Assembly (NCBI GenBank): GCA_041665485.1
Contig: JBAYIT010000001.1
Span: 73,884 to 137,883 of the forward strand
Length of the DNA: 64,000 nt
DNA from: Candidatus Shapirobacteria bacterium
GTDB taxonomy: Bacteria; Patescibacteriota; Microgenomatia; UBA12405
Reading direction: 5' to 3'
Under the pieces are notes generated by a model, which saw nothing but the letters and a program-made list of their open reading frames with translations, did no database searches and was not told the origin of the DNA. The position numbers and the translations under genes were made by a program. Below are positions 11,431 to 58,873 of this stretch, piece by piece (the first letter of the stretch is position 1; the number at the start of each line of letters is the position of its first letter).

Positions 11431-11550
11431 TTGCAGGTTTTATTGGCTCACCTTCGTGAGGTCCTGCTACCGCTGTAGGTTTTAATGGTCCGCCCATTAA
11501 GAGCGGGACACCTACCACCGTAGTTGGGAGAATCTTAGCTAATTGCAATA
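11431..11550 (-). promoter_or_regulatory. promoter (TTGACA-17-TAAGAT) plus roughly 95-nt structured leader of the queE operon
   Basis: Read on the minus strand: 'TTGACAAAGATATTGCAATTAGCTAAGAT', then leader hairpins CUACGGUGGUAG, CCGCUC-UUAAU-GGGCGG, CUACAGCGGUAG and CUCAC-GAAG-GUGAG before the ATG. Confidence 0.5.
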
Positions 11551-11603
11551 TCTTTGTCAAGATACATGTTTTTTACGAACAGAGAGATGATCGCCCTATG
11601 TTT

Positions 11604-11801
11604 TTATGAGATAATCCAGCGATCTAACAATGTATTTGGTGAAACTCCAGCCTTTCTGGCATTAATTGTTGTCTGATTTATTGCTCGACCGTTTGGTGTT
11701 TGAGGTGTGCCCTTTCGATAAATTTTATCTATTGTTTCTCGGCTCATTCTTTTTAAAAATATTTCGGGATTGTCTTGAAAACCGAGGGAAGTGGAGAACA
11801 A
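11604..11801 (-). pseudogene. ORF fragment / gene remnant downstream of the disrupted helicase
   Basis: A 65-aa ORF with an HTH-like tail 'ARKAGVSPNTLLDRW'. Neighbouring frames contain only short broken ORFs. Confidence 0.25.
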
Positions 11802-11919
11802 AAATTTTGTTTCTGGGGAAAAATCATAAAACGATTTTAAAACTGCCTTTTGTCTGTCTTTTGGGAGTGTAAAAAAGTGCTGATCAACTTGGAAAATGGC
11901 GTGATCATTTCATATTTTA

Positions 11920-14097
11920 TCAAAAAAGTCCCAACTGGTTTTCACAATTAATTTTCTTTTTAGCTGGACTAAAAATTTTATTTAGTCCCAAAGTTCGGTA
12001 AGTTCGTAAACGTTTGAAATACATAATTTTAAGCATTGGTACTTGATCATCAAAATAGTCATAAATCGTAGCGTTGGTTTTTCCCTCAAAACTTCGTTGA
12101 ACTCTACCCACATATTGGATTAGTTTTCCTTTCCACGAAAACGGAAAAGCTAAAAATAGATGTGACACTGCCGGCCAATCAAAACCTTCGCCGATTAATT
12201 TACCCGTAGCAATTAGTAGTTAAAATTGTTTTTGGTTAATTCGTTTAGCAATTCGTTCTCTCTGCTTTTTAGTCATCACTCCAGTAGCTATGGCAGCCTG
12301 AACACCTTTAGTTTATTGTCGAATGAGATCCAGTAGTGTGTGACAGTGGTCGAGACGTTCAGTTAATACTAAGCACTTAGCTCCGGTATTTAACGCATCG
12401 ATAATATCGTCAGTAATTTGATTGTTACGATCAGGGTCGGATATAACTAATCGACAGGCTTCTTGAAAATCTTCTAATTTTACATTAGCTTTAAACTGTG
12501 TTTTTCGAGTGATTAAATCGGTTTTTACGATTTGGTTGGAGTTTTCACTGTTATCAATATTTTCCGTAGTTGCTTTGACTATTTGATAGCTAACATACAA
12601 AAACATCAGTTTTTCTAATTTATCTTTACGATAAGTGGTGGCGGTTAATCCTAAAACATGTTTAGAAGGGAATTGTCTGACGACAGTACTAAAAGTATTG
12701 GCCGGGGCATGATGGCATTCGTCAATAATAATTAACCCAAAATCATTTTTAATTTCATCAACCCCTCGTCTGGATAAAGTCATGTAGGAAGCAATGGTTA
12801 CTTTTTTACCAACACTCCATTTGTTATCGCCAATAATGCCTATATCAAGTTTTGAAAGAGAAAAATAATCAGTAATTCGTTTTTGCCATTGATGGAGCAG
12901 AGTGTTAGTGTGAACAATAATTAAAGTTTTTTGACCCAGTTTTTTCATTAACGCTAGAGCGACCATAGTTTTACCAAAACCAGGTTGAGCTTCCAAAATA
13001 ACTCGGTCATGAGGTAGTAACTGATGTAAAACTTGTTTTTGATCTTTACGAAGGATCAGTTTAGACGGGAAACGTACTTGTTTTGTAGTTACTCGATTAT
13101 CAACAGCCTCGATTTTTATCTGTTCTTTTTGACAAAATTTATTTAGTTTTTCCAAAAATCCCAAAGGAACTCCTATTCCATCTGGCAATCTCTCGAGGGT
13201 TTTAATAAATCGAGGGGTGTTCCAAGTGGAATAACCAAATCGTTCTTTGGTGTAAAAGTCAGGGTTGGGAAAATTTAATTCTTTTTTGAGGTATTTATAC
13301 AGTTTGTCGGGTAAATGAGTGCTAGGAATAAATATGTTTGACCCTAAAATCAATTTAGTTTCTTGATTTTGAGTTGTGGTAACAGGTAGCTCTTCAACAT
13401 TTTCATCGGGCTGGTTAGGCAGATCGTCGATTGTTTTATTGCTGGATAGTTGAAGATATTGATTGATTTCTTGTAAAGATGTTCTTCGAATTGACTGTAG
13501 ATATTGCCATTGATCAGGAATCTCTTGACCATCTGAGTTAATAAAAACGGTTGTGTTGTTTGTGACAAATTTCCCATTAAGTGGCAAACAAATTAAATTT
13601 CCATAACCTTTACCGGTATGTTCATCTTGGCTGGGAAACATTCGATCAAATGTTTTTCGATCTTGGACTCCTGCCTGGTTTAATAGTAATTTACCCATTT
13701 GTCGGGCTAGATGAGCCGGAATTTGCCCGTTAAAGAAAAACCAGACATGACCACCATTGCCCGATTTTGACCGTTCTATGGCACAAAATAGATCATTGTT
13801 AAAAGCTTTAATGGTTACTTTTTGAGCCAAAATCAACCAATCTGGTCCGTCAAAATCGATGGCTAAAAAAGTAGTGGTGTTGTCTGGAAATAATGGATAA
13901 ACGCCAATTACCTGTTTTCCGTCTAAGTGTGATTGAATAACCGAATCTGTCAATGCTAAGGGGCTTTGATTTAGTCGAAAAACTGGAGCGTAACCAGACT
14001 TCTTCTTCGGTAAATCTTCCCAATAACGGGCAAAGACATCGTCTCGGGTGTCAAAGAGAGAACGATAAAGTTTAATATTTTCAGCCGAAATGCTCAT
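11920..14097 (-). pseudogene. primase-polymerase (AEP) / SF2 DExH helicase fusion, disrupted by two in-frame TAA codons
   Basis: N-terminal AEP motifs 'LAIDFDG', 'SKSGNGGHVWFFF' and 'ICLPLNGK'. Helicase motif I 'QPGFGKTM', motif II 'DECHH', motif VI 'QYVGRVQR' and 'LLIATGKLIGEGFDWP'. A single frame runs from 14097 to 11920 and is interrupted only by TAA at 12313-12315 and 12220-12222. Confidence 0.6.
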
Positions 14098-14278
14098 AAA
14101 TCTCTAGTATTTTACCTCTTAAAGAGCAATAATCCAACAATCTCCCTACAGATTGGCAGTTTCGTGCTTCTATATATCAAACAGTATCACTGTTTTAAGA
14201 CACTCCTTTTTTATGGTGTCTCATTTGTCTCGTTTAGCTTCAAAACTTTAATAGAATGAGACAGTGGGGAAGAGGGTG

Positions 14279-14326
14279 TTATAAGGACAGAAAGGTTCCA
14301 GACCCTAATGCTCCGCCAGATGAATA
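14279..14326 (+). repeat. copy 1 of the conserved intergenic motif of about 45 nt
   Basis: See the copy at 27010-27055. Confidence 0.55.
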
Positions 14327-14514
14327 AAAAAAATCAAGCCATAATTCGTATGAAAGAATTAGATGGCGATACTCCTGAAAGAATTAACGAACTAAAGACT
14401 CTTCTTGAAGACTCAGAAAAAGGTGAGAGGATAGATTCTATTAAGTCTTGGCTTACTATTGGAATTTCTATTGTCGCTTTGATAATTAGTGTTTTAGTTG
14501 CTGTTTTTAAGTAG
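14308..14514 (+). CDS. small membrane-anchored protein
   Basis: C-terminal TM segment 'WLTIGISIVALIISVLVAVF'. The start may be the ATG at 14320. Its 5' region is a repeated motif also found at 27010. Confidence 0.4.
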   Translation: MLRQMNKKNQAIIRMKELDGDTPERINELKTLLEDSEKGERIDSIKSWLTIGISIVALIISVLVAVFK

Positions 14515-14600
14515 TTAATTCATACGTATAAATAGCTTCCAAACCCGCCTGTTTCGAGCCTGCTGAGAGAAGTGCAATGGGGTGGTGATAAAATTGTCGC

Positions 14601-15002
14601 ATGGAAGACTGTATTTTTTGTAAAATTATTGCTGGTCAAGCAAGATCTTGGAAAGTTTTTGAGAACAATTTCGTATATGCATTTTTAGATATTCATCCAG
14701 CAAATAAATACCACGCCCTAGTTGTCCCCAAAAAACATTATAAAAATATTTTTGATATTCCTGAAGAAGAATTCCTGGAAGTAATGAAAGTAGTGAAAAA
14801 ATTAACAACTTTATATAACACCAAATTAGGAATAGAAAATGTTCAAATAATTAATAGTTCTGGGTCGGAAGCTCAACAGGATGTATTCCACTGTCATTTT
14901 CATATCGTTCCAAGAAGGCTGGGGGATGGACAAGATGTCAAATGGATCACCCACCCAGAATGGGTTGAAGAATATGACCGAATGTTGTTAGATATTCGAT
15001 AG
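14601..15002 (+). CDS. HIT-family (histidine triad) nucleotide hydrolase
   Basis: Histidine triad 'HCHFHIVPR' and N-terminal 'CIFCKII'. Confidence 0.8.
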   Translation: MEDCIFCKIIAGQARSWKVFENNFVYAFLDIHPANKYHALVVPKKHYKNIFDIPEEEFLEVMKVVKKLTTLYNTKLGIENVQIINSSGSEAQQDVFHCHFHIVPRRLGDGQDVKWITHPEWVEEYDRMLLDIR

Positions 15003-18060: not shown

Positions 18061-18873
18061 ATGGACATAAAAACAATATTGGATAAATATGGGATTAAGC
18101 CGGATCCGCAGAAGGACCAGTTCTTTTTGACTGATGAGGAAATAATTGAAAAGACGGTGAAGGTGGCTGATATTAATGAAGATGACACAGTGCTAGAAAT
18201 TGGTGCAGGACTGGGAAACTTAACGACCGAATTGGCAAAAAAGGCTAAAAGAGTAATAAGTTTTGAAATTGACAGAGCGTTTGAGCCAATATTGAGCCAA
18301 CTACCCAAAAACGTAGAAACACATTTCGAAAATGCCTGGGAATATGTGCAACTTCATGGTAAATGGAGGAAAACTAAAGAATACAACAAGGTGGTGGCTA
18401 ATATCCCCTATTCTTTTGCCGAACAATTGTTACATAATTTCACCTTTTTGATGTATGACAAAATAGTTTTGTTGGTGCCAAAAAAATTTTTGGGGAGTGT
18501 TAAAAGACATGGTATTTTTAGCTCGTTTTTTGAACCAAAACTGATACTGGAGGTGGATAGAACAAAATTTTTCCCGGTGCCACGAACCGATTCGGTTTTG
18601 ATTGATTTGGTTAAATTGCCCGACCCTTTGAAAAACAGGGATTTGGCCTTATTTTTAAGGCAGTATGTATATCAACACGAAGATCAAAAAGTTAGAAATT
18701 CATTAATGGAGGGAATAATTACTTACAAATGGTTAGCGTTGGAAGAAACAATGACGAAAAACGAGGCGAGAAAAATGGTTAAAGATAGTGGAATTGATTT
18801 AAATTTATTAGAAACTCAACCCGGTGATAAAATTTATGAAGAAATTAGTAGGGTTAAGTGGATGGTAGACTAA
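18061..18873 (+). CDS. rRNA adenine dimethyltransferase family (KsgA/Erm-like) paralog B
   Basis: Roughly 60% identical by eye to the protein at 2236-3042. Shares 'DQFFLTDEEII', 'VLEIGAGLGNLT', 'ANIPYSFAEQLL' and 'FFPVPRTDSVLIDL'. Confidence 0.65.
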   Translation: MDIKTILDKYGIKPDPQKDQFFLTDEEIIEKTVKVADINEDDTVLEIGAGLGNLTTELAKKAKRVISFEIDRAFEPILSQLPKNVETHFENAWEYVQLHGKWRKTKEYNKVVANIPYSFAEQLLHNFTFLMYDKIVLLVPKKFLGSVKRHGIFSSFFEPKLILEVDRTKFFPVPRTDSVLIDLVKLPDPLKNRDLALFLRQYVYQHEDQKVRNSLMEGIITYKWLALEETMTKNEARKMVKDSGIDLNLLETQPGDKIYEEISRVKWMVD

Positions 18874-31796: not shown

Positions 31797-33227
31797 ATGT
31801 GGCTAGAGAAGAAAAGTTTGAAGGATAAAGTATTTCTTTTGGCAATATTGGGGCTGTGTTATTTGACATTTTTTCATCATTTAGATGAGTTTACGATCAG
31901 GCTGTGGGATGAGGGGCGAAATGCAGTCAGTGCTCTAGAAATGATTAAAAATGGAAATCCGATAGTTACCTACTTTAACGGCATTCCCGATACCTGGAAC
32001 ACTAAACCGCCATTGCAAATATGGATAGTGGCGATAATGTATAAAATTTTTGGGGTTAATGAATTGGCACTAAGGTTGCCTTCGGCAATAGCGGCATCTC
32101 TGGTGGTGATATTAATATTTGGATTCGGACTGAAAATATTAAAAAATAGATGGATAGGTTTGTTGGGAGCACTGATTATTTTATCGAGTATGGGTTTCCC
32201 AGATATTCATATTGGCCGAACGGGTGATTATGATGCTTTATTGGTGTTGTTTATATCTCTGGGTAGTTTGTCTTTTTTTGGCTATTTGGAAAACAAGGCA
32301 AATAAATGGATGTACTTTAGTGGCTTGTTTTTTGTATTGGCGGTTTTGACGAAAGGAGTGGCGGGGTTATTAATATGCCCGGGAATAGTATTGTATGTAT
32401 TGTTTTCGGGCAATTTGATTTGGTTGGCAAAGAAGAAAGGCTTTTGGGAAACGGTATTATTAGCTTTATTAGTTATTGGTAGTTACTATTTGGGGCGGGA
32501 GGCATTAAATCAGGGATATTTGGCGGAGGTGTGGCGGGAGGAGGTTTGGAACAGGTCACAAAATAATCTGGGGGCGAATAGTAGTGATTTTTGGTATTAC
32601 TGGAAACTGTTGGCGAGTTTCAGATTTCAGAAATGGATATATTTCGTGCCCTTGTCAATTGTTGCCGTGCTTCTGACTAAAAATAAGGTAATTAAAAGAT
32701 TTGTTGTGTTTGCGTTTTTAATTACTGTTTCTTATTTTTTAATAATTTCGAAGACCGAGACTAAACAGATGTGGTATGACGCTCAACTATATCCATTTAT
32801 GTCGCTATTGGTGGCAATTTTTATTATTGAGATGATTAATAGAGTTCCGCTTTTACTAAGACTCGCACCAATTTTAATAGTTTGTTTTTACATGCAAAGG
32901 TATATTCGGACGAATATTGCCTACATAAATCGGCCGGATTTGGAAAAGTCGGAGGCGTGCTTGAAATATGGTTATTTGTTTCGGGATAAATCAATTAATA
33001 AGAGTGGATTTGTTGGCGTTCATAAGGCCAGCTGGTGTAATCCAATATATTTTTATTTGGAAAGAGAAGGGCTCAAAAGAAAGGAAATCTCACAATTAAC
33101 TGTTGGCGACAAAGCCTTAACTTGCGACAGTATTACTTTTAATGAAATTAAGGAGAGGTACGAAATTGGAATGATTTTTGATAATCGGGATGGATGTTTG
33201 GGGTTTGAGATTAGGGGGATAAAATAA
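31797..33227 (+). CDS. GT39/GT83-like (ArnT/PMT-family) membrane glycosyltransferase
   Basis: N-terminal 'RLWDEGRNA' loop and more than 10 TM segments, typical of undecaprenyl- or dolichyl-phosphate-sugar transferases. Confidence 0.55.
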   Translation: MWLEKKSLKDKVFLLAILGLCYLTFFHHLDEFTIRLWDEGRNAVSALEMIKNGNPIVTYFNGIPDTWNTKPPLQIWIVAIMYKIFGVNELALRLPSAIAASLVVILIFGFGLKILKNRWIGLLGALIILSSMGFPDIHIGRTGDYDALLVLFISLGSLSFFGYLENKANKWMYFSGLFFVLAVLTKGVAGLLICPGIVLYVLFSGNLIWLAKKKGFWETVLLALLVIGSYYLGREALNQGYLAEVWREEVWNRSQNNLGANSSDFWYYWKLLASFRFQKWIYFVPLSIVAVLLTKNKVIKRFVVFAFLITVSYFLIISKTETKQMWYDAQLYPFMSLLVAIFIIEMINRVPLLLRLAPILIVCFYMQRYIRTNIAYINRPDLEKSEACLKYGYLFRDKSINKSGFVGVHKASWCNPIYFYLEREGLKRKEISQLTVGDKALTCDSITFNEIKERYEIGMIFDNRDGCLGFEIRGIK

Positions 33228-33262: not shown

Positions 33263-34948
33263 TTAAGTTTCTTCTAATAGCAAAGTTGTGTCGGCGTCTA
33301 AGCCGTTTTTCTTATAGACAATTACTCCCATGCTTTTGGCAACTTCGACAATAACTTCTGGCTCGTTGGCCCCTTGAGAAATTTGTTTTAAAACCTGTTT
33401 GGCTAATCTAAACCTGGCTGAAATTGTAGGCGGTTTGATTTCGTTTGGACCAGGTTTCACTAAAGCATAGATGCCGTCGGTGGAGCGAACAACGGATAAA
33501 AATATAAACGGGTCTGATAAAAAGTTAAAGAGATCGGCAAGACCGTGCCCGCAAAAATCGGCCACTTGATGGGTGTGGATTAGCCCGACCCGTTCTTTTA
33601 TCGGCTGGGAATAAACCCGAGGCAGAGAGCAAAAGGCGGATCCGGCCCTAGCACCAACGACATAGGCTGTTGGAATATTGGTTTTACCTGGAAAGATCAT
33701 AATATTGGCCGCCCACTCCTGACCAGAGTCTTGAGCGACTTGATTGAGATGGTCTGCGTGGGGTTGAATTTCACTTAGATCCAAAAACCGACCACCAGTG
33801 GCAGTGTTAACGACACAATGAGGGGCTGACCATTCATCAAATATTTGCCGAGAGGTTGCCAGATTTTCTGGGTCGGGTTCGCTTTGGATTCTTTGAAAGG
33901 ACCTAATTAAATCGCGAACAAAGGCGAGACTGTTTTGGCCTTGATGCAGAAGTTTCCTTAAGCGAGTGGGTAGATTAATTTTTGCTTGTTGTTCTTCAAG
34001 ACCAATTAATTCATCCTTGCTTAGTTTAATGTCACCAAAGAGCTCTTCATATTGGGCCATTTCTGCAACCTTGGTGGGGTCTAAGGGTTGATAATTAAAT
34101 TTATCTAACTCATTCTTTAAATAAGCGGTAACAACTGTTTTTTCGGCAACCTCAAAAGCCATTCCCTGAGAGTGGAGCCACAGAACCGTCCAGGCGTTTT
34201 CAGGATTGTTGGTGAAATAGCCAACAGCAAAGGCTCTGTTGGCGCGAGCAGAACCAACATTGGCCATGGTTTGATATGGATTAGGGTCGCCCAGAAACTC
34301 GCCAATATTTAATTCTCCGCGTTGAGCAAACATGGCATTAAAGTCCGATTCGTGCTGAAGGTAGGTTGCAAACCGCCTCAAAAGTGGATCGTTTGTCTCT
34401 TCTGGGCCTAAAATCCAGGGGGCAATTAGATAATCTGCGGCTCTGCCAGAGAGAACGGCCTCAAGATATGCTTCTGGGGTGACAGCGGCGGTTAGGATTC
34501 GGTCGCCATTGTCATGATCTACAAATGGGCGAGATCCAGATTCAATTTCAAGTAAACGGTTAACAGTGTATGTTAAGGCGTTGTTTAGTGGCAAAATTCC
34601 GGTTTCTTGAAGGTAATGAGTGTCTTCGTGGGCCAAAACTGGTTCATCAAAACCACCACGAGGAATATCAATATCGTTCGGGAAAAGACCTAAGGAGTCT
34701 TTAACGATACTTCCAGCACTGGCGTCGCGACCGTCTTCCCAAGAAAGCCGATAGATGGTGTGTCGAGCGATTTGCTGAACTAGGTGGGCTCTTTGGGTTA
34801 GGGGACGATCTCGTAATAGCCGGTCAGTCAAACGAGCGCCAACAGCCGTGACAGTGTCCCTATCGGCTGGTTCAAGTTCGGTGACGAAAGCTCTTCTTAA
34901 AGCATCTCTGGTTCCCGGTTTGGTGTTTTGATCAACGGTGTGTGGCAT
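33263..34948 (-). CDS. large hypothetical protein with HExxH (zincin-like, DUF4157-like) motif, GC-rich
   Basis: 'PVLAHEDTHYLQETG' resembles the DUF4157 'LAHELTHVVQ' zincin motif. The nucleotide composition is visibly GC-richer than the neighbours. Confidence 0.45.
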   Translation of the reverse strand: MPHTVDQNTKPGTRDALRRAFVTELEPADRDTVTAVGARLTDRLLRDRPLTQRAHLVQQIARHTIYRLSWEDGRDASAGSIVKDSLGLFPNDIDIPRGGFDEPVLAHEDTHYLQETGILPLNNALTYTVNRLLEIESGSRPFVDHDNGDRILTAAVTPEAYLEAVLSGRAADYLIAPWILGPEETNDPLLRRFATYLQHESDFNAMFAQRGELNIGEFLGDPNPYQTMANVGSARANRAFAVGYFTNNPENAWTVLWLHSQGMAFEVAEKTVVTAYLKNELDKFNYQPLDPTKVAEMAQYEELFGDIKLSKDELIGLEEQQAKINLPTRLRKLLHQGQNSLAFVRDLIRSFQRIQSEPDPENLATSRQIFDEWSAPHCVVNTATGGRFLDLSEIQPHADHLNQVAQDSGQEWAANIMIFPGKTNIPTAYVVGARAGSAFCSLPRVYSQPIKERVGLIHTHQVADFCGHGLADLFNFLSDPFIFLSVVRSTDGIYALVKPGPNEIKPPTISARFRLAKQVLKQISQGANEPEVIVEVAKSMGVIVYKKNGLDADTTLLLEET

Positions 34949-35010: not shown

Positions 35011-35409
35011 ATGAATGAAACATATAATTGGTATCAGCAGTTAATTAAACCAAGTTGGGCACCGCCAAGCTGGCTGTTTGGGCCGGTGTGGTCGGTGCTT
35101 TATTTAATTATTGCCATTTCTTTTGGCTATGTTTTTTATTTGGCAATTAAGGGAAGAATTTCGTGGGTAATGGCCTTACCTTTTATTTTGAATCTGGTTT
35201 TTAATTTGATTTTTACCCCAATTCAATTTGGGTTGAGAAATAATTTATTAGCGGCAGTTGATATCTTGGCGGTGTTAGTGACAATGATTTGGAGTTTTGT
35301 AGCGATTTTGCCGGTGGCGAGGTGGGTAGTAATAGCCAACGTCCCCTATCTTATTTGGGTGTCGTTTGCGACAGTGTTGCAATTTACGATTACATATTTA
35401 AACAAATAA
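35011..35409 (+). CDS. TspO/MBR family protein
   Basis: 'WYQQLIKPSWAPPSWLFGPVWSVLY' signature and five TM segments. Confidence 0.75.
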   Translation: MNETYNWYQQLIKPSWAPPSWLFGPVWSVLYLIIAISFGYVFYLAIKGRISWVMALPFILNLVFNLIFTPIQFGLRNNLLAAVDILAVLVTMIWSFVAILPVARWVVIANVPYLIWVSFATVLQFTITYLNK

Positions 35410-35410: not shown

Positions 35411-35809
35411 ATGTTTTTAAAGGCTTATCTTGTTTCCCTGGTTACTTTTTTAATGATTGACGGAGTGTGGCTGACAGTGGTGGCGAAAGATTTTTATGCC
35501 AAACATTTGGGATTTTTGATGACCAAAACGCCAAATTTGGCGGTGGCGGGGATATTTTACTTAATTTATATTTTGGGAATGGCGGTATTGGTGTTAATGC
35601 CGGCGATAGAAAAAGGGTCTTTGGCTAGAGCAATTTTAACTGGGGCACTGTTTGGGCTTTGCGGATACGCCACCTATGACTTAACTAACTTGGCGACCAT
35701 AAAAGATTGGCCAATTTTAGTGACGATAGTTGATTTGATCTGGGGGACAGTCTTGTCGGCAACAGTGGCAGGGGTGAGTTATCTGGTACTGACACGATGG
35801 TTGAAATAA
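35411..35809 (+). CDS. DUF2177-like membrane protein
   Basis: Four TM segments. No catalytic motif. Confidence 0.4.
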   Translation: MFLKAYLVSLVTFLMIDGVWLTVVAKDFYAKHLGFLMTKTPNLAVAGIFYLIYILGMAVLVLMPAIEKGSLARAILTGALFGLCGYATYDLTNLATIKDWPILVTIVDLIWGTVLSATVAGVSYLVLTRWLK

Positions 35810-36527
35810 ATAGCTTTGTTGTTGGCGGGTTTTTGATTTGGATTTACATGACAGGGTGGTTTGTAATTTCGAAAGTGGCCAAAAGAAATGATGTGGCTGA
35901 TATTGCTTGGGGATTGGGGTTTATTTTGGTAACGCTGGCTAACTTGACTATTTATCCGAACAGCAAATTGCTGGTATCACTCTTGTTAATTTCTACTTGG
36001 GGAATAAGGTTGGCTTACCATATTTACAATCGTAACAAAAAGAAAAAGGAGGACTATAGATATGAACAGTGGAAAAGTGGGACATATTTTAAGGTGTTTA
36101 TAACACAGGGGGTTTTATGTGGCTTATTTGTTGGCCAATTTTTTGGTCGGTTGGGGAAATAGAACAATTAAATTTAGTGGGGGTTTTAGTTTGGCTGGTT
36201 GGTTTTTACTTTGAGGCAGTGGGGGATTGGCAACTGAAAAAGTTTATTAAAAATCCGGAAAACAAGGGAAAGATTATGCAGTCTGGTTTATGGGCCTATA
36301 GCCGGCACCCTAATTATTTTGGCGAGGTAACAATGTGGTGGGGAATATGGCTACTTAATTTTAGCCAAAATTGGTGGACTGTGGTTGGGCCAATGACGAT
36401 AACTTTTTTGATTTTAAAGGTGTCGGGAGTTCCTCTATTGGAAAAAAAATATGAGGGAAATAAGGAATTTGAAGACTACAAAAAGAGAACTAGTATTTTC
36501 TTACCATTGCCACAAAGAAAAAAATGA
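35797..36527 (+). pseudogene. DUF1295 / steroid-5-alpha-reductase-like membrane methyltransferase-fold protein, split by a frameshift near 36117-36162
   Basis: Two overlapping ORFs in different frames jointly span a roughly 250-aa DUF1295-type protein. The 'GLWAYSRHPNYFGE' signature is in the second ORF. Confidence 0.5.
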
Positions 36528-49899: not shown

Positions 49900-50250
49900 A
49901 TGGTGGATGATGTTGGTCAGTCAGTTGATTTTTATAGTAAATTTTTGGGGTTTAAACTAAAAAATAGGGTAGAGGAAACTTGGGCGGAGGTAGAAAACGA
50001 AAGTGTTGTTATTCAGTTTTTAGCAAGAAAGGCATTTGAAAAAGAAGTAAATGAGTTTGGAGGAAGAGAGAAAGGAGGAACTTTTTTGTTGCTATTTGAA
50101 ATTGAAGAGGTGGAGGAAATATACAAGAAAATAATGAATCTGGTGGAAATTGTTGACAGGTTAAAAAAGACTGATTATGGAACGAAGGAGTTTAAATTTA
50201 AAGATAACAGTGGTTATATAATTCAATTAACAGAGAGAGTTAGAGATTAA
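49900..50250 (+). CDS. VOC / glyoxalase-bleomycin-resistance family protein
   Basis: 'MVDDVGQSVDFYSKFLGFKL' beta-alpha-beta-beta-beta N-terminus. The start is uncertain (ATG 49900 or GTG 49869). Confidence 0.5.
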   Translation: MVDDVGQSVDFYSKFLGFKLKNRVEETWAEVENESVVIQFLARKAFEKEVNEFGGREKGGTFLLLFEIEEVEEIYKKIMNLVEIVDRLKKTDYGTKEFKFKDNSGYIIQLTERVRD

Positions 50251-50255
50251 TAGCT

Positions 50256-51074
50256 ATGAAACAAATGGTGGTGAGAACAAAGATGGGTTTGGAGGAGATC
50301 GGGAAGACGAAGAATGATTTTGAGTATTGGTCGGCGAGGGAGTTGATGACAGTGCTGGGGTATATTGAATGGAGGAAATTTTGGGGTGTAGTGAAAAAAG
50401 CGAAGGTGGCTTGTAAAAATAGCGGATATGAGCCGAAAAACCATTTTGTCGGAGCCGCCAAAATGGTAGCAATTGGATCTGATACCATGAGGCGGTTAAG
50501 TGACTATTGGTTAACCCGTTATGCCTGTTATTTAATAGCCCAGAATGGGGATAGCCGGAAACCAGAGATTGCTTTTGCCCAAACTTATTTTGCGGTACAA
50601 ACAAGAAAACAGGAAATCAGGGAGGCGGATGAGAAACTGGTAAAAAGAATTGAAGCTAGAGAGAGGTTAAAAGAAACAGAAAGAAAAATTGAGGGAACGG
50701 TATATAAAAGAGGAATTCGAAGTTCGGCTGATTTTGCTAGCTTTAAAGATAAACATATTCGAGGTCTGTATGGAGGGATAGGGATTGCTAGTTTAAAAAA
50801 GAAAAGAAAGATTCCTAAAAATCGGGCCCTGGCAGACTTCGACAGCTTTTTGGAGTTAAGGGCGAAAGATTTTGCCCTAGCGATGACTGATCACAATATT
50901 AAAGACAAAAATTTGACTGGGAAGCCAAAACTAGAAAAAGAGGTTTATGAGAACAGCGTGGCAACTAGAAGAACAATGCTAAAACGTGGAATAATGCCGG
51001 AAAACTTAAAGCCGGAAAAAGATATCAAGGAGATTAAAAGCAGACTAGAGATTAAAGGCGAACTTGAAGGCTAG
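50256..51074 (+). CDS. DNA-damage-inducible protein D (DinD) homolog
   Basis: Collinear with E. coli DinD: 'YWSARELM..LGY', 'KMVAIGSDTMRRLSDYWLTRYACYLIAQNGDSRKPEIAFAQTYFAVQTR'. Confidence 0.6.
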   Translation: MKQMVVRTKMGLEEIGKTKNDFEYWSARELMTVLGYIEWRKFWGVVKKAKVACKNSGYEPKNHFVGAAKMVAIGSDTMRRLSDYWLTRYACYLIAQNGDSRKPEIAFAQTYFAVQTRKQEIREADEKLVKRIEARERLKETERKIEGTVYKRGIRSSADFASFKDKHIRGLYGGIGIASLKKKRKIPKNRALADFDSFLELRAKDFALAMTDHNIKDKNLTGKPKLEKEVYENSVATRRTMLKRGIMPENLKPEKDIKEIKSRLEIKGELEG

Positions 51075-51584
51075 GGTTAGCAAAAGAACAAGACTGACGG
51101 GGAAAACGACTTTGGCATAGGGAAAAGGAGCGTAGCCTAGCTTCTTTTTAGTGTTGAGATAGGTGATGTTGCCAATAAGCATGCCTAGGAAACCCAGGAC
51201 TTGGCCGAAAATAATTTTGTCAATGCCAAGCAGTTTATTAGCGGAGTGGCCAGTTTGGCCGGTGGTAATAAAATAAGCAAGGGTGGTTAGAAGTAAGATT
51301 AGAGAAAGAAATATGGGTTTGGAAAAAATTTCCAATTTCCAATTTCCAATTTCTAATTTATTCAGTTTGGGAGCCAGCCAGAAGGCGAGGGCGGTGTTGA
51401 GGGCGGAGATCCAGATACTAACTAGAAGATCGTCAATGCCGAGTTTTTTGGCAATTAACATTCCCCCACCGACAGTAACGATACATACGGGGCACTGCGC
51501 CCCTACGGGGGGCGCAAGAAATAAGAAATAAGAAATAAGAAATAAGAATGAAAACAAAAATATCATAGAGTTATTGTAATACAT
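51045..51584 (-). CDS. hypothetical membrane protein (start uncertain)
   Basis: Several TM segments. The N-terminal 50 codons run through simple repeats and GC hairpins, so the real start may be an internal Met. Confidence 0.35.
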   Translation of the reverse strand: MYYNNSMIFLFSFLFLISYFLFLAPPVGAQCPVCIVTVGGGMLIAKKLGIDDLLVSIWISALNTALAFWLAPKLNKLEIGNWKLEIFSKPIFLSLILLLTTLAYFITTGQTGHSANKLLGIDKIIFGQVLGFLGMLIGNITYLNTKKKLGYAPFPYAKVVFPVSLVLLLTLAFKFAFNL

Positions 51585-51600
51585 GTTCCCGAAGGCGCCT
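51573..51600. terminator. perfect 28-nt palindrome ATGTTCCCGAAGGCGCCTTCGGGAACAT (hairpin)
   Basis: Perfect inverted repeat 15 nt downstream of the Cys-rich mini-ORF stop, read on the minus strand. Confidence 0.5.
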
Positions 51601-51614
51601 TCGGGAACATCTGG

Positions 51615-51698
51615 CTACTTACCGCATTTACATGCTTTACCTTTTTGGCAGTCGCAGGAACAACTGGAGTCACAGGAACAATTTTTGCTGTCGTCCAT
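51615..51698 (-). CDS. metallothionein-like Cys-rich peptide (27 aa: MDDSKNCSCDSSCSCDCQKGKACKCGK)
   Basis: Not in the supplied ORF track. Has its own promoter (TTGCAT-17-TACACT) and a downstream perfect palindrome. 9 Cys in 27 residues. Confidence 0.4.
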   Translation of the reverse strand: MDDSKNCSCDSSCSCDCQKGKACKCGK

Positions 51699-51719
51699 GG
51701 TTTGTTTAACTGATAACTA

Positions 51720-52271
51720 CTACGAGTGTAGTACTTTATTTAAGATGATGCAAGAGGCAAACCAAAGGGAACCGAGAAGGTAACCACCAAGAATGTCGGT
51801 GGGGTAATGAACTCCGAGGTAGATACGGCTAAAACCAATAAGAAGAACAACAATCACAGCAAACATAAAAGAAATTAAACTTAAACGTCTGTTTTTGGTG
51901 AGACGGTAAATTAAAAAAACTAGGGTGAAATAAAAAACTAGAGAATTCATGGCGTGGCCGGAGGGGAAGCTGGTAGTGGATTCAAAAATTAGCGGAGAAA
52001 TATTGGGCCGAGGCCGGGCAATAAGTGATTTAAGCAGTAAGTTAATAGGGAGACTTAGGGAAGCAAATAAACCAAAGGAGAGAAGATGTTTGGCCCGTTT
52101 AAGCCGGACAACAAGGGCGAGAACTAAAAAGAGAGCAGAAAAAACATACTCGGAACCGAGATTGGTGACGAATAACATAAATTCTGTTAAAGCCGGGGTG
52201 CGAAAAGTGTAGATGAATTGGGAAATAACAAGATCAAAAGGAAGAATAAGATTAATAATATTGTTGACCAC
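51720..52271 (-). CDS. PAP2-family phosphatase (undecaprenyl-diphosphate / lipid phosphatase-like)
   Basis: PAP2 motifs 'KSLIARPRP', 'SFPSGHA' and 'SRIYLGVHYPTD'. Confidence 0.75.
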   Translation of the reverse strand: MVNNIINLILPFDLVISQFIYTFRTPALTEFMLFVTNLGSEYVFSALFLVLALVVRLKRAKHLLSFGLFASLSLPINLLLKSLIARPRPNISPLIFESTTSFPSGHAMNSLVFYFTLVFLIYRLTKNRRLSLISFMFAVIVVLLIGFSRIYLGVHYPTDILGGYLLGSLWFASCIILNKVLHS

Positions 52272-52277
52272 AAACGA

Positions 52278-52787
52278 TTATAAGTTATCTTTAATCCATT
52301 TTTCGATTGGAATGGAAGGATTGATGGTTAAAAAAACTTCAGGAAAAATGGGTGGCTCTAACTCTTTTATGGTGGCTTTAAATAATTCATTACTAACATC
52401 AAAACGAATTTGGTGTTGACGATTGTGAAGCAATCTTTGGCGGGCGAGCGAGGGTGGAGTGTCGACAAAAATAGTAATGGCTTCTAAACCGAGATTGTCG
52501 ACAATGGCCCTGACTAATCCCCTTTCATAACGAGTAAAGTTACCAGCATCTTGAACGACTGACTGCCCGGAAAGTAGGGCATTTTTGACTTTCTGATACA
52601 TAGATTGATAAATTTGGTCCCATTCCGGCTCTGTGACTTTTTCGTCGGGTAAATCTGGCCCGACAATTTCGACCTTAACTTCATCAAGATCAACACGAAC
52701 AAAACCTTTTATTTGGGAAATGAGTTTTGAAATAGTGGTTTTACCAGAAAAAGAGATACCACACATTATGTAGAGTTTAGGAAGCAT
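52278..52787 (-). CDS. P-loop kinase (AAA_33-like)
   Basis: Walker A 'CGISFSGKTT'. 169 aa. Confidence 0.5.
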   Translation of the reverse strand: MLPKLYIMCGISFSGKTTISKLISQIKGFVRVDLDEVKVEIVGPDLPDEKVTEPEWDQIYQSMYQKVKNALLSGQSVVQDAGNFTRYERGLVRAIVDNLGLEAITIFVDTPPSLARQRLLHNRQHQIRFDVSNELFKATIKELEPPIFPEVFLTINPSIPIEKWIKDNL

Positions 52788-52799
52788 AGTTTATTATAC

Positions 52800-52855
52800 T
52801 TGACAACAGTGTTAGAAGGGTCTAACATATGAGTGTTAGAAGAATCTAACTTATG
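52800..52855 (+). promoter_or_regulatory. promoter TTGACA-17-TAACAT overlapped by two tandem 24-nt palindromic operator repeats
   Basis: AGTGTTAGAAGGGTCTAACATATG and AGTGTTAGAAGAATCTAACTTATG. Each contains TGTTAGA-N4-TCTAACA. The second overlaps the XRE start codon. Confidence 0.6.
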
Positions 52856-53047
52856 AAAACGAAAATTAAAGAGATGAGGACCAAACTTGGGCTGACCCAG
52901 GAGCAATTGGCCGACAAGACGGGAGTGAGGCGGGAAACGATAGTGTTTCTGGAGCAGGGAAAATATATCCCCTCTTTAAAGTTGGCACATGATGTAGCGA
53001 AAATATTAAAGACAAAAATTGATTATTTATTTATTTTTGAGGATTAA
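52853..53047 (+). CDS. XRE-family HTH transcriptional regulator (64 aa)
   Basis: '[26 protein letters not shown]' HTH_3 motif. Confidence 0.7.
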
Positions 53048-53049
53048 AA

Positions 53050-53472
53050 ATGCTAGCAAAAACAGAATGGTTTAATAGTAGAAAGTTTGGCGGATGGGGA
53101 TTAACACCCAGAACTTGGCAGGGGTGGGTGTATGTGTTGGTTTTGACGGCACCGTTGGCCCTGATCCCCTATTTGCCCATTGAACAAAAATGGCAGACAC
53201 CGTTAATGTTGGGGTGGGGAGCAGTAGTAGTGATTGATGTTATGGGAATAATGTATCGAATTAAAAAAGATGAGCGGGAAGTGGCTCATGAGGCGCTGGC
53301 GGAGCGAAATGCGATGTGGTTTATGGTGACGGCACTGGGAATTGGAGTGGCCTATCAGGCAATGATGAGCGCTACGGCCGGGACAAACCAGGTGGACCCA
53401 GTAATAATTATTGCCCTAGCGGGATCAACGATAGTCAAGGCCACTAGCCATTGGTGGTTGAGGGATAAATAA
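53050..53472 (+). CDS. small membrane protein (partner of the XRE regulator)
   Basis: Three or four TM segments. 3-nt gap after the HTH gene. Confidence 0.4.
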   Translation: MLAKTEWFNSRKFGGWGLTPRTWQGWVYVLVLTAPLALIPYLPIEQKWQTPLMLGWGAVVVIDVMGIMYRIKKDEREVAHEALAERNAMWFMVTALGIGVAYQAMMSATAGTNQVDPVIIIALAGSTIVKATSHWWLRDK

Positions 53473-53475
53473 AAA

Positions 53476-54630
53476 ATGACAGATTGGAAGAAAAACGTAC
53501 TGGTCTATAAGATTGATTCGTTCTTAAATTGGTTCTATGTGCCGATTGGAGTCTGGGTGCTGATTTGGAATCATTTTTTTAGCTTTAGCCAAATATCGTT
53601 ATCGATGGGAATAAGTTTGTTGGCGGGGGTGGCTTGCGAACTACCATCGGGGGCATTGGCAGACATGATTGGACGGAAAAGGACGGTAATGCTAGGGAGA
53701 TTAATTTTGTTTCTGGGGTATGTATGGTTATTTTTCAGGCACGATTTTGTTGGTTTTTTAGTCTGGCAAATTGCTTACCAAATTGATGGAGCCTTTACAT
53801 CTGGGGCTAATTCGGCTCTACTTTACGACTCACTTAAGGAAAACGGACAAGTGGAGAAACATTACAAAAAAGTTGAGGCGGACACTTTTATGTACAACAC
53901 TATCGGCATGGCAGTGGGAGGAATCTTTGGGGGATTATTGTACGAAATTACCCCAATGGGGCCATATAATTTTATGATTTTAGTAACAGGGCTGGGGTTG
54001 TTGGCCTCGTGTTTTTACCAAGAGCCAGCAATGGAAAAAATTGGGTGGAGCGTTAAATCTTATTTAAAGCAAAATTATGATGGTTTTATGCACATTTTTA
54101 GCAATGAAAAGATTAAAGCAGTGTCGCTGTTTTCAATTGCAGTGAGTGTGGTGACATATACCGGACTTTGGTATCTGTATGAACCGAGGCTGACGGCGGG
54201 AGGGTTTGACCCAAAAATTTTGGCAATACTAATTTCTGGAACGTACGCCATCAGAGCGGTGGGGACAAGATTTAACCCAACTCCTTTAGTAATGGCGATT
54301 TCTCAAACCGTGGGAACAGCATTATCGTTTGCTGGGGGGAAATTTGGAGCAGTGAGTTCGGTTTATCTCAGAAAATTTGTAGATGGTTGCCGACAACCGA
54401 GTTTAATTGCCTGGCAAAATGATCAAATAGAATCGAAATACCGAGCGACGTCATTGTCGGCGATATCTTTGCTAACAAATTTAATAGTCGGAGGGGTGGG
54501 GCCATTATTAGGAGTGGGAATTGATAGGTTCGGAGCGGAAACTACTTTGGGGATATGGACTATTTTTGGGGTAGTAGTGGTAATACCGTTGGGGTGGAGG
54601 TTGGGAGTTATAATGAAAAATAAGACATGA
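53476..54630 (+). CDS. MFS-type transporter (paralog 4 of 4)
   Basis: 'ALADMIGRKRTVM' and 'SKYRATSLSAISLL'. Confidence 0.6.
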   Translation: MTDWKKNVLVYKIDSFLNWFYVPIGVWVLIWNHFFSFSQISLSMGISLLAGVACELPSGALADMIGRKRTVMLGRLILFLGYVWLFFRHDFVGFLVWQIAYQIDGAFTSGANSALLYDSLKENGQVEKHYKKVEADTFMYNTIGMAVGGIFGGLLYEITPMGPYNFMILVTGLGLLASCFYQEPAMEKIGWSVKSYLKQNYDGFMHIFSNEKIKAVSLFSIAVSVVTYTGLWYLYEPRLTAGGFDPKILAILISGTYAIRAVGTRFNPTPLVMAISQTVGTALSFAGGKFGAVSSVYLRKFVDGCRQPSLIAWQNDQIESKYRATSLSAISLLTNLIVGGVGPLLGVGIDRFGAETTLGIWTIFGVVVVIPLGWRLGVIMKNKT

Positions 54631-54834
54631 AAAGTAAAAAGATTAGACCAACTAAAAAGTACTCCTTTCGAGATTTGGGAACAAAATGGGTGATAAAAAA
54701 TGGCCCAACTGAAGGATCAATTAATCATGATAGAGACATGTACGAATTTGAGGAAAATAAAATAAAGAAGCAATTAAAAAAGTCTTGACTTTTGATAGCG
54801 ATTTTGAGAAGGCGGGATTTGAGATAATTAATGG

Positions 54835-55893
54835 CTAAATAGCCTCGAGGGTGCCGGAGACCATGCCCATCCAACAGGAGAAGTTGTAGACGCCTGGTTT
54901 GGTGACAGAGAACTCGCGAACAGAAGTGGTGCCGGGGACTAAATTGACGGGGCCGTCGAACAGTTGGCGGGCAATAACGGCGTTGGTGCAACCGCCGGTG
55001 CCAGTGTCAGTAATTTCCCAACGAACGGGAACATTGGCGCGGACTTTAAGACGAGAGGGAGAGTAGCCACGGGAAGAGGCGGACATTTTGAGGACTTGGA
55101 CGCCGTTGACGATGGGGGGTAAACCTTTGTTAGATCCTAGATTTTGGATGTTAGATCCTAGATTAATTTGTGGAGAAAAACCGAGGACTTTTAGTTGAGA
55201 AGAGAGATTAAAAAAGGCAAAGGCAATGACCAAAAGCCCGACAACTTGGGAGACAGAAGGCTTGGAGCTAAACTTTGAGCCTGAATAGCCGATGAGAAAA
55301 AGCGGAATAGCCGTGCCTAGGGCAAAAAAGCCCATAATTAGGGCGCCGGTAACAAAAGAGCCGGAGGCGAGGGCGAGAGATTGAGAAGTGAGAGTAAAAC
55401 CGCAAGGAAGAAAAAATGTTAGAGCGCCGATAAGAAAACTATTTTTGGTTAGTGATTGAGGAGAAAAAGACAAGCGGATAACTCTTAGACCAAGAATTTG
55501 GAGACCAAAAAGAATCATGGCAAGAGATACGATAATAGTTAGGATTGAACCAAGAGTAAAAGAAAGTCGGATAGACTGGCCAAGAAAACCCAGAAGACCG
55601 CCAAGAAGAAAAAAAGAAGTGAGCCTTCCGGTGTTAAATGAAAAACGATGGTGAGAAAGAGAAAGGGCAATGCCGCCAATTAGTCCGGCGCAAGTGGAAA
55701 AGCCAGCTAAGAGACCAAAGGGAAAGAAGGCTAGGGGGAGAGAATCTGGGGTGACACTAAAAAGAGAAAACAAGCTTGTTTGACTTAAAAAATAAACGGT
55801 AGTTAGAATTATTCCAACAATAATAAAAGAATTTATTAGATTGGCTGGTTTGGAGGGAGTATTTGAATGACAACAATCGCCTTGTGAAGACAT
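54835..55893 (-). CDS. polytopic permease with C-terminal cupredoxin-like (Cu-binding-like) domain
   Basis: N-terminal 'DCCHS'. TM Cys motifs 'FSTCAG' and 'LPCGF'. C-terminal 'TGGCTNAV...GVYNFSCWMGMVSG' resembles cupredoxin_1-type domains. Confidence 0.45.
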   Translation of the reverse strand: MSSQGDCCHSNTPSKPANLINSFIIVGIILTTVYFLSQTSLFSLFSVTPDSLPLAFFPFGLLAGFSTCAGLIGGIALSLSHHRFSFNTGRLTSFFLLGGLLGFLGQSIRLSFTLGSILTIIVSLAMILFGLQILGLRVIRLSFSPQSLTKNSFLIGALTFFLPCGFTLTSQSLALASGSFVTGALIMGFFALGTAIPLFLIGYSGSKFSSKPSVSQVVGLLVIAFAFFNLSSQLKVLGFSPQINLGSNIQNLGSNKGLPPIVNGVQVLKMSASSRGYSPSRLKVRANVPVRWEITDTGTGGCTNAVIARQLFDGPVNLVPGTTSVREFSVTKPGVYNFSCWMGMVSGTLEAI

Positions 55894-55923
55894 ACTACAA
55901 GTGTAGTACTTAAGAAGGATTTG

Positions 55924-56232
55924 TCAAGTGAAGTTTATTTCCAATTTGGTATTAGTAGCCTTGGCGATACGTTCCAACATAGAAAAGTTAGGTTTTGAAT
56001 TGCCCGATTCCAGCCGTGAGATGGCTGGCTGTTGAGAACCGATTTTTTTAGCCAATTGAAGTTGACTTAGTTGATGTTTTAGCCTCAATTCAATAAGTTT
56101 TTGGGTGAGTTGAAATTGAAGATCGAGACAACTAGAGGCCCGTTTAAAAGCCTTGTCTTGGGATAATTTTTTGTCAAGTTGGGTGAGAGTGGTTAATTTA
56201 TTGATATTTCTAGCCATGGGTAAATATAACAT
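55924..56232 (-). CDS. HigA-like XRE HTH antitoxin
   Basis: 'LSQLQLAKKIGSQQPAISRLESG'. Immediately downstream of the toxin gene. Confidence 0.6.
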   Translation of the reverse strand: MLYLPMARNINKLTTLTQLDKKLSQDKAFKRASSCLDLQFQLTQKLIELRLKHQLSQLQLAKKIGSQQPAISRLESGNSKPNFSMLERIAKATNTKLEINFT

Positions 56233-56242
56233 TTTTGGTATA

Positions 56243-56584
56243 TTATGTAAACTCCTTGGTGCGCTTGATGGCTAAATCCAACTCAGATCGGGGAGTTTTT
56301 TGACTTTTTTTGACAAAAACATTGGTAATCAAATAACGAGACTTGATAATTGAGAAAAATAATCTGAAATTAAACTTACCAACAATACGTAGTTCGTAAA
56401 TGGCTGGGTTAGCATAAATTTTTTTAACCCATTTGGTTTGCAGTAGTTGTAATTCATAAATATTTAGCAATTTAAGGCCGTTTCGAACTTTAACCTGATC
56501 TTGAGTGCCTAATTTCTCTATTTGATTAACGATAATTTCTTTACCGGAAACTGATTTATAAAAGACGATTTTGTCGTAGGACAT
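56243..56584 (-). CDS. RelE/ParE-superfamily toxin (HigB / phage Gp49-like)
   Basis: 'IYELRIVGKFNFRLFF' and a C-terminal 'KKSQKTPRSELDLAIKR' pattern typical of the Gp49/HigB family. Confidence 0.55.
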   Translation of the reverse strand: MSYDKIVFYKSVSGKEIIVNQIEKLGTQDQVKVRNGLKLLNIYELQLLQTKWVKKIYANPAIYELRIVGKFNFRLFFSIIKSRYLITNVFVKKSQKTPRSELDLAIKRTKEFT

Positions 56585-56636
56585 AATTTAATATACCGAA
56601 TAAAAGGCGAAGTGGCAATAATGATAAAATTGGATT

Positions 56637-57367
56637 ATGAAGAAAATGGAGAAAGTGAAAAAGATTTTGGAGAAGACGGGAAAATATTGGATTGGATTTG
56701 TGGGAGATTCGATAACCAGTTGCGAATGGGTGCATCCAAACTGGCGAGAGATTGTGGAGTATGTGCTGAAAGAAGAATTACAACCGAAGTTTGCTGATTG
56801 GCGGGTTCCCTCCTGGGGAATTAGATGTTTTAATTATGGGTTTGACGGAGCAACAACTGGAGATATATTAAAACTAATTTCCAATTACCAATTACCAATT
56901 TCCAACCTCAACCTAGTGATTAGTTTAATGGGAGGAAATGACAGATTGTTTGGAATAAAACCGGAAGAATCAAAAAAAATATTGAGAAAATAATTAAAAA
57001 ACTTGATGAGAGTGGTGTTGAAGTGGTGTGGTGTACTTCAATTCCGGCTTATTATCGGGCAGACAAAAACAAAGAATACGAGCCTTATGCTAAGGCAACT
57101 ATGGCAATTGAAAAATCAATGGGTGTTCAGATAATTAATATGTTTGAAAAATACAAACAATTTGACCTAGATCGTTTTTTTACGTTTAAATCGGAGGAAA
57201 ACCCAGAAGAGAGAGTAAAGGAGGGAGATTTAGATTTTTGGCATCCGAATCAGCTGGGAAATGCTTATATTGCCAAAATAATTTTGGGAGAAGTGTTTGG
57301 GGTGGAATTTGACCCGGAAAAATATATTAAAGAAAATTTGGCAGGAGAAAAATATCCGGGGTATTAA
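56637..57367 (+). pseudogene. SGNH/GDSL hydrolase split by a frameshift at an A8 homopolymer (56976-56983)
   Basis: Block I 'GFVGDSIT' and block III 'GGND' are in the first ORF. Block V 'DFWHPN' is in the second. Adding one A in the A8 run fuses the frames (PEESKKNIEKIIKKLDESGVEVVWCTS). Confidence 0.6.
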
Positions 57368-57720: not shown

Positions 57721-57739
57721 AAGTACTACTATTGTAGCA

Positions 57740-58003: not shown

Positions 58004-58248
58004 AGGTCAAACAACTCATCGACGGAATCAACCGAAGACAGTTTACCCTGTTGATATTGAGCGAGAGAGTCGCCCAAAAGCCGGTCGGCTTTAGTGCTTA
58101 AATGGGTAGATCTTTGGCTAACAACGCTGTCAACGGACTTGGAAATGAGGTATTTAACATAGCGGGTAATATCGTAACCAAAACGACTGGCAAGAAAAGA
58201 GAGGGAGGTGGCTTCGGCGGGAGTAAGAGTGATTTGTAGTTTAGTCAT
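58000..58248 (-). CDS. antitoxin (RelB/DinJ or Phd/YefM-like)
   Basis: 82 aa and upstream of the toxin in the same operon. Acidic C-terminus. Confidence 0.45.
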   Translation of the reverse strand: MTKLQITLTPAEATSLSFLASRFGYDITRYVKYLISKSVDSVVSQRSTHLSTKADRLLGDSLAQYQQGKLSSVDSVDELFDL

Positions 58249-58870: not shown

Positions 58871-58873
58871 TCG

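Follow-up and report, generated by a model that had tools for sequence, protein, structure and literature searches.

In a 64,000-nucleotide stretch of Candidatus Shapirobacteria DNA (the window), a minus-strand gene at 33263..34948 encodes a 561-aa protein that we read, with rather more confidence than doubt, as a cytoplasmic, chromosomally resident, two-module predicted metallohydrolase of an undescribed family of the Candidate Phyla Radiation (CPR). The N-terminal module carries an invariant HExxH motif, and the C-terminal third of the protein is a divergent JAB/MPN+ domain. HExxH and JAB domains are both of known kinds; what appears to be new, judged from the sequences, is an HExxH family not described before, together with its fusion to a divergent JAB domain. 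Many genes in the small genomes of CPR/Patescibacteria are unannotated. NCBI lists this protein, on a 411,674-bp contig of Candidatus Shapirobacteria, as 'hypothetical protein WCV93_00630', and the DNA of the gene is identical across three independent assemblies from different samples. The unannotated gene can now be described as HExxH and JAB domains with named predicted catalytic residues, as follows:

33263..34948, minus strand: whole gene, 561 aa, ATG start (list of open reading frames, ORFs)
34034..34882, minus strand: N-terminal HExxH domain, about aa 23-305 (alignment A1; AlphaFold2 (AF2) model, predicted local distance difference test (pLDDT) mostly 85-98)
34598..34642, minus strand: predicted active-site helix PVLAHEDTHYLQETG, aa 103-117 (H107, E108 and H111 invariant; helix residues 102-115 in the model)
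34313..34351, minus strand: ESDFNAMFAQRGE with E200 and E212, candidate third metal ligands (both invariant in A1)
33818..34033, minus strand: helical linker, about aa 306-377 (AF2 model: low confidence at aa 307-326, long helices at aa 328-377)
33305..33817, minus strand: C-terminal JAB/MPN (JAMM-type) domain, about aa 378-548
33716..33718, minus strand: E411, predicted catalytic Glu of the JAMM motif (the column is E in 5/6 long forms)
33533..33577, minus strand: HTHQVADFCGHGLAD, with H458, H460, and D472 (8-residue spacer; G469 where the signature has Ser)

An exhaustive HMMER search over 1.84 billion representatives returned 16 relatives, with E-values from 6e-97 to 1e-15, and hence a family of 17 members including the 561-aa protein. 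A word-indexed homologue search, performed with the single sequence and with the family profile, gave no match beyond the protein itself; and pattern-based scans with the six long forms (defined below) found one GTDB genome and gave no relatives in IMG/VR viral contigs or JGI metagenome contigs. Of the 14 clusters that were looked up, 12 were singletons and the other two held 5 and 2 sequences. All relatives that have an organism name are CPR/Patescibacteria (Microgenomates/Gottesmanbacteria, Dojkabacteria, and 'Patescibacteria group bacterium PATE-7'). The family is very small, previously undescribed, and, so far, found in CPR/Patescibacteria only.

Identities within the family, in the 17-member alignment A1, range from 24 to 35%, and only eight columns are invariant, including H107, E108, H111, T126, E200, E212, and Y225. 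The members have two architectures: a short architecture (11/17 members, about 270-360 aa) comprising the N-terminal domain only, and a long architecture (6/17 members, 490-595 aa, including the 561-aa protein) comprising the N-terminal domain and a C-terminal domain. We conclude that all members have the HExxH module in common, to which about a third add the JAB module. The first-pass annotation had described a large soluble protein, and the sequence bears this out: no segment suits a membrane helix (the maximum 19-residue Kyte-Doolittle mean, 1.42, falls short of the hydrophobicity of one), and the protein has no signal peptide and a polar N-terminus.

The N-terminal HExxH domain

The ORF and the zincin-type HExxH motif on which the first-pass annotation was built, PVLAHEDTHYLQETG, are both real, the former at 33263..34948 (-) with 561 aa and the latter at aa 103-117. 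H107, E108, and H111 are invariant in 17/17 family members, and Q114 and G117 are invariant among the long forms; the A1 consensus at the motif is HEAxHxLQxxGxLPxNxALT, and the 561-aa protein reads HEDTHYLQ. The number of HExxH motifs expected by chance from the composition of the protein is about 0.03, and only 2/69 long ORFs of the window contain one: the gene described here and a Peptidase_M3 gene. Because H107, E108, and H111 make up three of the eight invariant columns, we take the HExxH motif, on grounds of conservation, to be a genuine conserved site.

The domain surrounding this motif comprises about 280 residues, about 190 of them conserved helical residues downstream of HExxH, and by itself makes up the whole of the short forms (roughly 300-350 aa); the family is defined by this module. 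Two of the invariant residues, E200 and E212, lie 93 and 105 residues downstream of the motif. An AF2 model built with the 17-sequence alignment (mean pLDDT 76.6, predicted template modelling score 0.67; the model without an alignment, with pLDDT 33, is unusable) shows the domain, at aa ~27-305, as all-helical except for the unmodelled aa 68-98, with HExxH on the helix at aa 102-115. Scans of the single protein with Pfam, NCBIfam, PADLOC, PHROGs, and PDB sequences gave nothing usable, and no Pfam or NCBIfam match assigns the protein to a housekeeping family. The N-terminal domain thus appears to represent an undescribed HExxH family.

The first-pass annotation had likened the motif to the DUF4157 (PVC-metallopeptidase, PF13699) domain of polymorphic toxins and injection-system cargo. 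We collected 120 proteins with precomputed PF13699 annotation, aligned 32 of them (alignment A3; consensus helix LLAHELTHVVQQR), and built from those 32 a DUF4157 hidden Markov model (HMM). The likeness holds at the level of the helix: VLAHEDTHYLQETG is identical to the DUF4157 consensus LLAHELTHVVQQRG at 8/14 positions, and HExxHxxQ is common to both. The likeness is confined to that helix. No PF13699 match was obtained for the protein (E≤10), for the 17 family members (E≤1), or for the family consensus (E≤10); the DUF4157 HMM, with all filters off, scored ≤5.4 bits, on the 14-residue helix only; and hhalign aligned A1 with A3 with a probability of 22.8% and an E-value of 9e-4 over just 31 columns, corresponding to a strand and the HExxHxxQ helix. 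Membership of the 561-aa protein in DUF4157 is not supported by these profile comparisons.

The C-terminal JAB/MPN domain

The HExxH motif had been called the only recognisable element of the protein, a description that does not survive analysis of the C-terminal third, which bears a JAMM-type motif and a JAB/MPN fold. In the relatives P0003-P0005 the sequence HTHPxxxAPPSxxDL is an exact JAMM signature, HxHx7SxxD, and the long forms have a conserved Glu about 50 residues upstream of the HxH. In the 561-aa protein, which reads H458-T-H460, the metal-ligand positions H458, H460, and D472 are kept together with E411; the JAMM spacer of relative P0002 is, as in the 561-aa protein, 8 residues long. 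In the AF2 model, aa 378-548 form an α/β domain with pLDDT of about 80-90, in which the HxH ends the strand at aa 453-460 and D472 starts the helix at aa 470-478. A Foldseek search of the model against the PDB gives the AMSH-like Sst2 as best match (probability 0.99) and Rpn11 next. A search of Pfam with the C-domain consensus gives Prok-JAB, with an E-value of 4.4e-5 and 23.8 bits over profile positions 15-99 of 114, and a search of PADLOC with the same consensus gives a weak match of a JAB model at the motif. On this evidence we class the C-terminal third as a divergent JAB/MPN+ domain.

The sixth long form, P0006, has lost the JAMM Glu (replaced by G), both His, and the Ser together. This joint loss of E, H, H, and S is how a real active site decays, and is the pattern of inactive MPN domains. 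The P0006 gene is split (locus L008, 9796-9978 and 10001-11473), with an upstream 60-aa ORF bearing the family N-terminal 'FLRHLPLTERA' helix; P0006 is probably a decaying copy. At the same locus, a 196-aa protein encoded divergently from P0006 (9068-9658, minus strand) ends in ...KLSGG, is assigned to no family, and has no equivalent at the other loci. A C-terminal di-glycine is typical of ubiquitin-like tags. A 169-aa ORF that follows the short-form gene P0010 was considered as a detached JAB domain and was rejected, as it encodes a low-complexity protein.

Composition and genomic setting

Composition was compared with that of the 69 long ORFs of the window, and a synonymous-codon score was computed against the other 68 genes. 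The gene had been called visibly GC-richer than its neighbours. Its GC content, 46.1%, is indeed higher than the window gene mean of 40.0% (standard deviation 3.9), but it lies inside the normal spread of the window's genes (z 1.6, rank 5/69), and GC at the third codon position (GC3) is 0.400, exactly the window median. GC at the first and second codon positions is 0.58 (rank 2/69) and 0.40 (rank 8/69), respectively, and the protein is high in Ala, Pro, Asp, and Arg and low in Lys and Ile, with R/(R+K) of 0.65 vs. a mean of 0.35. Since the excess is confined to codon positions 1 and 2, and the amino acids are skewed, we conclude that the excess is an effect of amino-acid composition. The genes of relatives in other genomes do not have a GC content above that of their own flanks; the raised GC is therefore particular to the composition of the 561-aa protein. 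The synonymous-codon log-likelihood of the gene has a z of -0.47, the 19th lowest of 69, and most other minus-strand genes of the stretch score worse. With GC3 at the median and typical synonymous codon usage, the proposal of horizontal acquisition is not supported: recent acquisition of the gene is without a compositional signal.

The neighbours are as the first-pass annotation had placed them. A PMT/PMT_2 glycosyltransferase gene at 31797-33227 (+) is convergent with the 561-aa gene, and a TspO gene at 35011-35409 (+) is divergent from it and 62 bp away. Beyond TspO lie a DUF2177 gene and then a DUF1295 gene that is split in two overlapping ORFs (35797-36162 and 36117-36527, covering Pfam profile positions 1-98 and 99-235). 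The reading frame probably shifts at a G5T4 run (36107-36116), and the ENA assembly of this contig shows the same split.

The precomputed annotation covers about 2.3-64 kb of the window, or some 62 kb out of the 411 kb or more of the contig, and was complemented with the contexts of relatives at eight loci. The annotated content is housekeeping or miscellaneous, including ClpB, PurF, major facilitator superfamily transporters, a two-component system, an ABC-F protein, malic enzyme, Peptidase_M3, Peptidase_M16, and a few helix-turn-helix (HTH) and Gp49 (HigB-like) genes. Neither the annotated part of the window nor the eight loci contain secretion, extracellular contractile injection system (eCIS), type VI or type VII secretion system, RHS, or immunity genes (sheath, tube, and baseplate genes included), and neither contain genes for ubiquitin-like proteins (Ubl), E1, or E2. 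The proposal of an effector, toxin, or injection cargo accordingly finds no delivery or immunity genes to go with it in this part of the contig or at the relatives' loci.

Two short-form relatives are syntenic (loci L012, 8221-11515, and L016, 8689-13285), with a solute-binding-protein gene on one side and an AI-2E transporter gene on the other; only 2-16 bp separate the short-form gene from the solute-binding-protein gene, and the two may be co-transcribed. The occupation of the same slot in two related genomes indicates vertical inheritance. At a third locus (L010, 10001-15538), the short-form gene P0010 is accompanied by the 169-aa low-complexity ORF, a 776-aa TraG/VirD4-like protein (DUF8128), an HTH protein, and a tyrosine integrase, which suggests that P0010 is on an integrated mobile element; the same contig also holds a ribonucleotide reductase gene interrupted by an intein. 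One short form adjoins a Phd/YefM antitoxin.

Other features of the window stand apart from the 561-aa gene. Genes of mobile-element and toxin-antitoxin types (Bro-N, two Gp49/HigB-like, HTH_3, and Penicillinase_R) are scattered at about 50200-63400, 15-28 kb from it and unlinked to it. Three RrnaAD (rRNA adenine dimethylase) genes occur within 20 kb, at about 1400-4300 and at 18061-18873, an unusual redundancy for a small CPR genome. In the interval 2000-15000, GC skew passes from negative to strongly positive near 11430-14600 (about +0.3, sustained to 64 kb), and the main gene strand switches where the skew switches, as at a replication origin; no dnaA gene was seen at the switch, and DnaA boxes are not enriched (27 matches vs. 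20 expected).

Proposed function and relation to known systems

According to the reading that we favour, the module at aa ~23-305 would most likely bind a metal through H107 and H111, in the manner of zincin peptidases, with E108 as general base and with E200 or E212 possibly supplying a third metal ligand. The module at aa ~378-548 would use the JAMM ligands H458, H460, and D472 and the predicted catalytic residue E411. Sites of this kind break the bond, peptide or isopeptide, at the C-terminus of a small protein tag. Since the JAMM site of the 561-aa protein keeps the ligands and the Glu but is without the Ser, its activity may be weakened, by the Ser-to-Gly change and possibly also by the longer spacer. 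We infer, rather than show, that the protein binds metal, has peptidase chemistry, uses a third ligand, and acts on cytoplasmic proteins. If the N-terminal domain is a peptidase, both its zincin family and the HExxH-JAB architecture would be new, and the protein would offer a handle on protein processing in host-dependent organisms. An extension of this reading, which we regard as speculative and unlikely, is that the family comprises CPR-specific, undescribed zinc peptidases, joined in the long form to a JAMM isopeptidase, with which these episymbionts cut or 'de-tag' their own or host proteins; if true, this would be a two-headed protease effector or regulator without a counterpart in cultivated bacteria and with no linked Ubl, E1, or E2.

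Several observations weigh against the favoured reading. For the N-terminal domain, it is the invariant motif alone that suggests a zincin-type peptidase. The residues directly before the active-site helix, aa 68-98, have pLDDT <50 and no secondary structure, and the zincin-type β-sheet expected just upstream of that helix is absent from the AF2 model. The next helix (aa 123-137) has no conserved acidic column, the conserved residues there being N122, L125, and T126. Sequence and profile searches of the domain against Pfam, NCBIfam, PADLOC, and the PDB gave no match, and no zincin is among the listed fold matches of the whole model, lists in which the JAB domain dominates. For the C-terminal domain, the Prok-JAB score of 23.8 bits is below the Pfam gathering cut-off of 25 and was obtained for the consensus only; among individual members the best E-value is 0.19, and the 561-aa protein itself has no match. 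The Ser position of its JAMM motif is G469, and its spacer, at 8 residues, is one residue longer than in the signature. Finally, no conserved substrate or partner gene stands next to family members across the eight relatives' loci.

Alternatives to the two-module metallohydrolase concern the role of the whole protein or the chemistry of one module. The protein could be an injected or secreted effector, like the cargo of eCIS/PVC systems or polymorphic toxins, in which a DUF4157-like N-terminal domain processes or loads the protein and a Tox-JAB-2-like C-terminal domain has its effect inside a target cell, which might be the episymbiont's host. The 8/14 helix identity with the shared HExxHxxQ and the hhalign alignment of an upstream 'G..I' strand and the helix (pairwise E 9e-4) speak for this, as does the succession of N-terminal HExxH domain, long helical linker, and C-terminal enzyme, which parallels DUF4157 architectures (PMC8213781, PMC3482391). 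The best viral fold matches, moreover, are uncharacterised iridovirus, mimivirus-like, and algal-virus proteins, from groups listed for Tox-JAB-2/DUF4329 (PMC3482391); the C-terminal domain of one relative has a weak DUF4329 match (E 0.15); and the family is rare and patchy, with one relative adjoining TraG/VirD4-like and integrase genes. However, neither any member nor the consensus matches PF13699 (HMM ≤5.4 bits, hhalign 22.8%); the HExxH domain is three to four times the size of DUF4157 and is without a Glu on the following helix; delivery and immunity genes are absent from the annotated 2.3-64 kb and from the eight loci; the protein has no signal peptide, native codon usage, and no IMG/VR relatives; and 11/17 members have no C-terminal domain, the C-terminus, where present, being invariable in kind. 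We consider an injected effector improbable. Neither the likeness of the helix to DUF4157 nor a modest rise in GC content is enough to call the gene a horizontally acquired, injected toxin.

It is likewise doubtful that the JAB module is not a peptidase and that HExxH is the sole protease; the module would then be like RadC/Tox-JAB domains, with nucleic acids or nucleotides as substrates, or would be an MPN scaffold without activity. Divergent JAB clades have been argued to be possible nucleases (PMC3482391, PMC5512222), Gly stands at the Ser position of the 561-aa protein and its spacer has 8 residues, no genes for Ubl, E1, or E2 lie nearby, and P0006 shows that the family tolerates full loss of the JAMM motif; but three metal ligands and the catalytic Glu are kept in 5/6 long forms, and the gene with the degenerate site, that for P0006, also looks split and pseudogene-like. 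We give decidedly little weight to the idea that it is the HExxH domain that is not a hydrolase, and is, for example, an Fe/α-ketoglutarate-dependent peptide hydroxylase or a metal site with a structural or regulatory role. Some HExxH proteins are documented as oxygenases (PMC12636437), the model has neither a zincin fold match nor a zincin β-sheet, and the helix after the motif has no Glu, all of which speaks for such an identity. The invariance of the HExxH Glu, as for a general base, argues otherwise, as do the absence of NCBIfam and Pfam matches (neither the protein nor the consensus matches the α-ketoglutarate-dependent HExxH hydroxylases, IPR026337, in NCBIfam) and the absence of a precursor of RiPPs (peptides made by ribosomes and modified after translation), a biosynthetic cluster, or a neighbourhood of that kind around any inspected member. 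To a PD-(D/E)xK nuclease like the influenza PA endonuclease, as an identity for the C-terminal domain, we attach almost no credence. PDB profile searches with alignments A1, A2, and A4 returned neither zincins nor JAB proteins, only a weak match to the PA endonuclease, the N-terminal domain of which (PA-N) is the best PDB profile match of the C-terminal domain (E 0.08-0.23), with D472 aligned to D108 and K498 to K134. This E-value falls short of significance, all six long forms have a hydrophobic residue two positions before K498, leaving no (D/E)xK, the position aligned with PA E119 is Ser or Ala, and fold searches give JAMM/MPN proteins rather than nucleases; with no (D/E)xK and a JAB fold, the PD-(D/E)xK identity was rejected.

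The predicted two-module metallohydrolase can be set beside four known systems. With DUF4157 it shares the HExxHxxQ active-site helix, a 'G..I' strand shortly before that helix, and an N-terminal position followed by a linker and a second enzymatic domain. It differs from DUF4157 in size (about 280 aa vs. about 80 aa) and in the helix after HExxH, which in PVC-metallopeptidase has a conserved Glu (Zhang et al., PMC3482391) and in this family does not. It differs also in context, with no eCIS or polymorphic-toxin setting in the inspected part of the window or at the relatives' loci, and in a C-terminus that is absent or always JAB, never variable. With Tox-JAB-2/DUF4329 (PMC3482391), the C-terminal domain of the family shares the E, H[ST]H, S, D motif, and there is a likeness by virus group only, the best viral fold matches coming from groups reported to carry Tox-JAB-2; the sole sequence support is the DUF4329 match in one relative at E 0.15. 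Unlike Tox-JAB-2 proteins, the 561-aa protein is without RHS or secretion domains and without an immunity gene.

Combinations of zincin-like metallopeptidase and RadC/JAB domains occur in the polyvalent proteins of phages and conjugative elements (PMC5512222). The likeness to these lies in the presence of HExxH and JAB-superfamily domains in one multidomain class, and in the short-form relative that adjoins TraG/VirD4-like and integrase genes; unlike them, the 561-aa protein has two domains only, is chromosomal, has native codon usage, and has no relatives in IMG/VR. Its JAB domain is nearer to classical JAMMs than to RadC. Compared with the JAB/MPN+ (JAMM) proteases (Prok-JAB PF14464, Pyrococcus JAMM1, CBASS Cap3, Rpn11, AMSH, BilC), the JAB domain here has marginal sequence similarity (23.8 bits for the consensus, none for the 561-aa protein), carries Gly instead of the motif Ser, has a spacer of 8 residues, is joined to an HExxH domain, and is without Ubl, E1, E2, or CD-NTase partner genes nearby. 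It is like them in having the Glu, the HxH that ends a strand, and the Asp that starts the next helix, and in that three relatives of the 561-aa protein carry the exact HxHx7SxxD.

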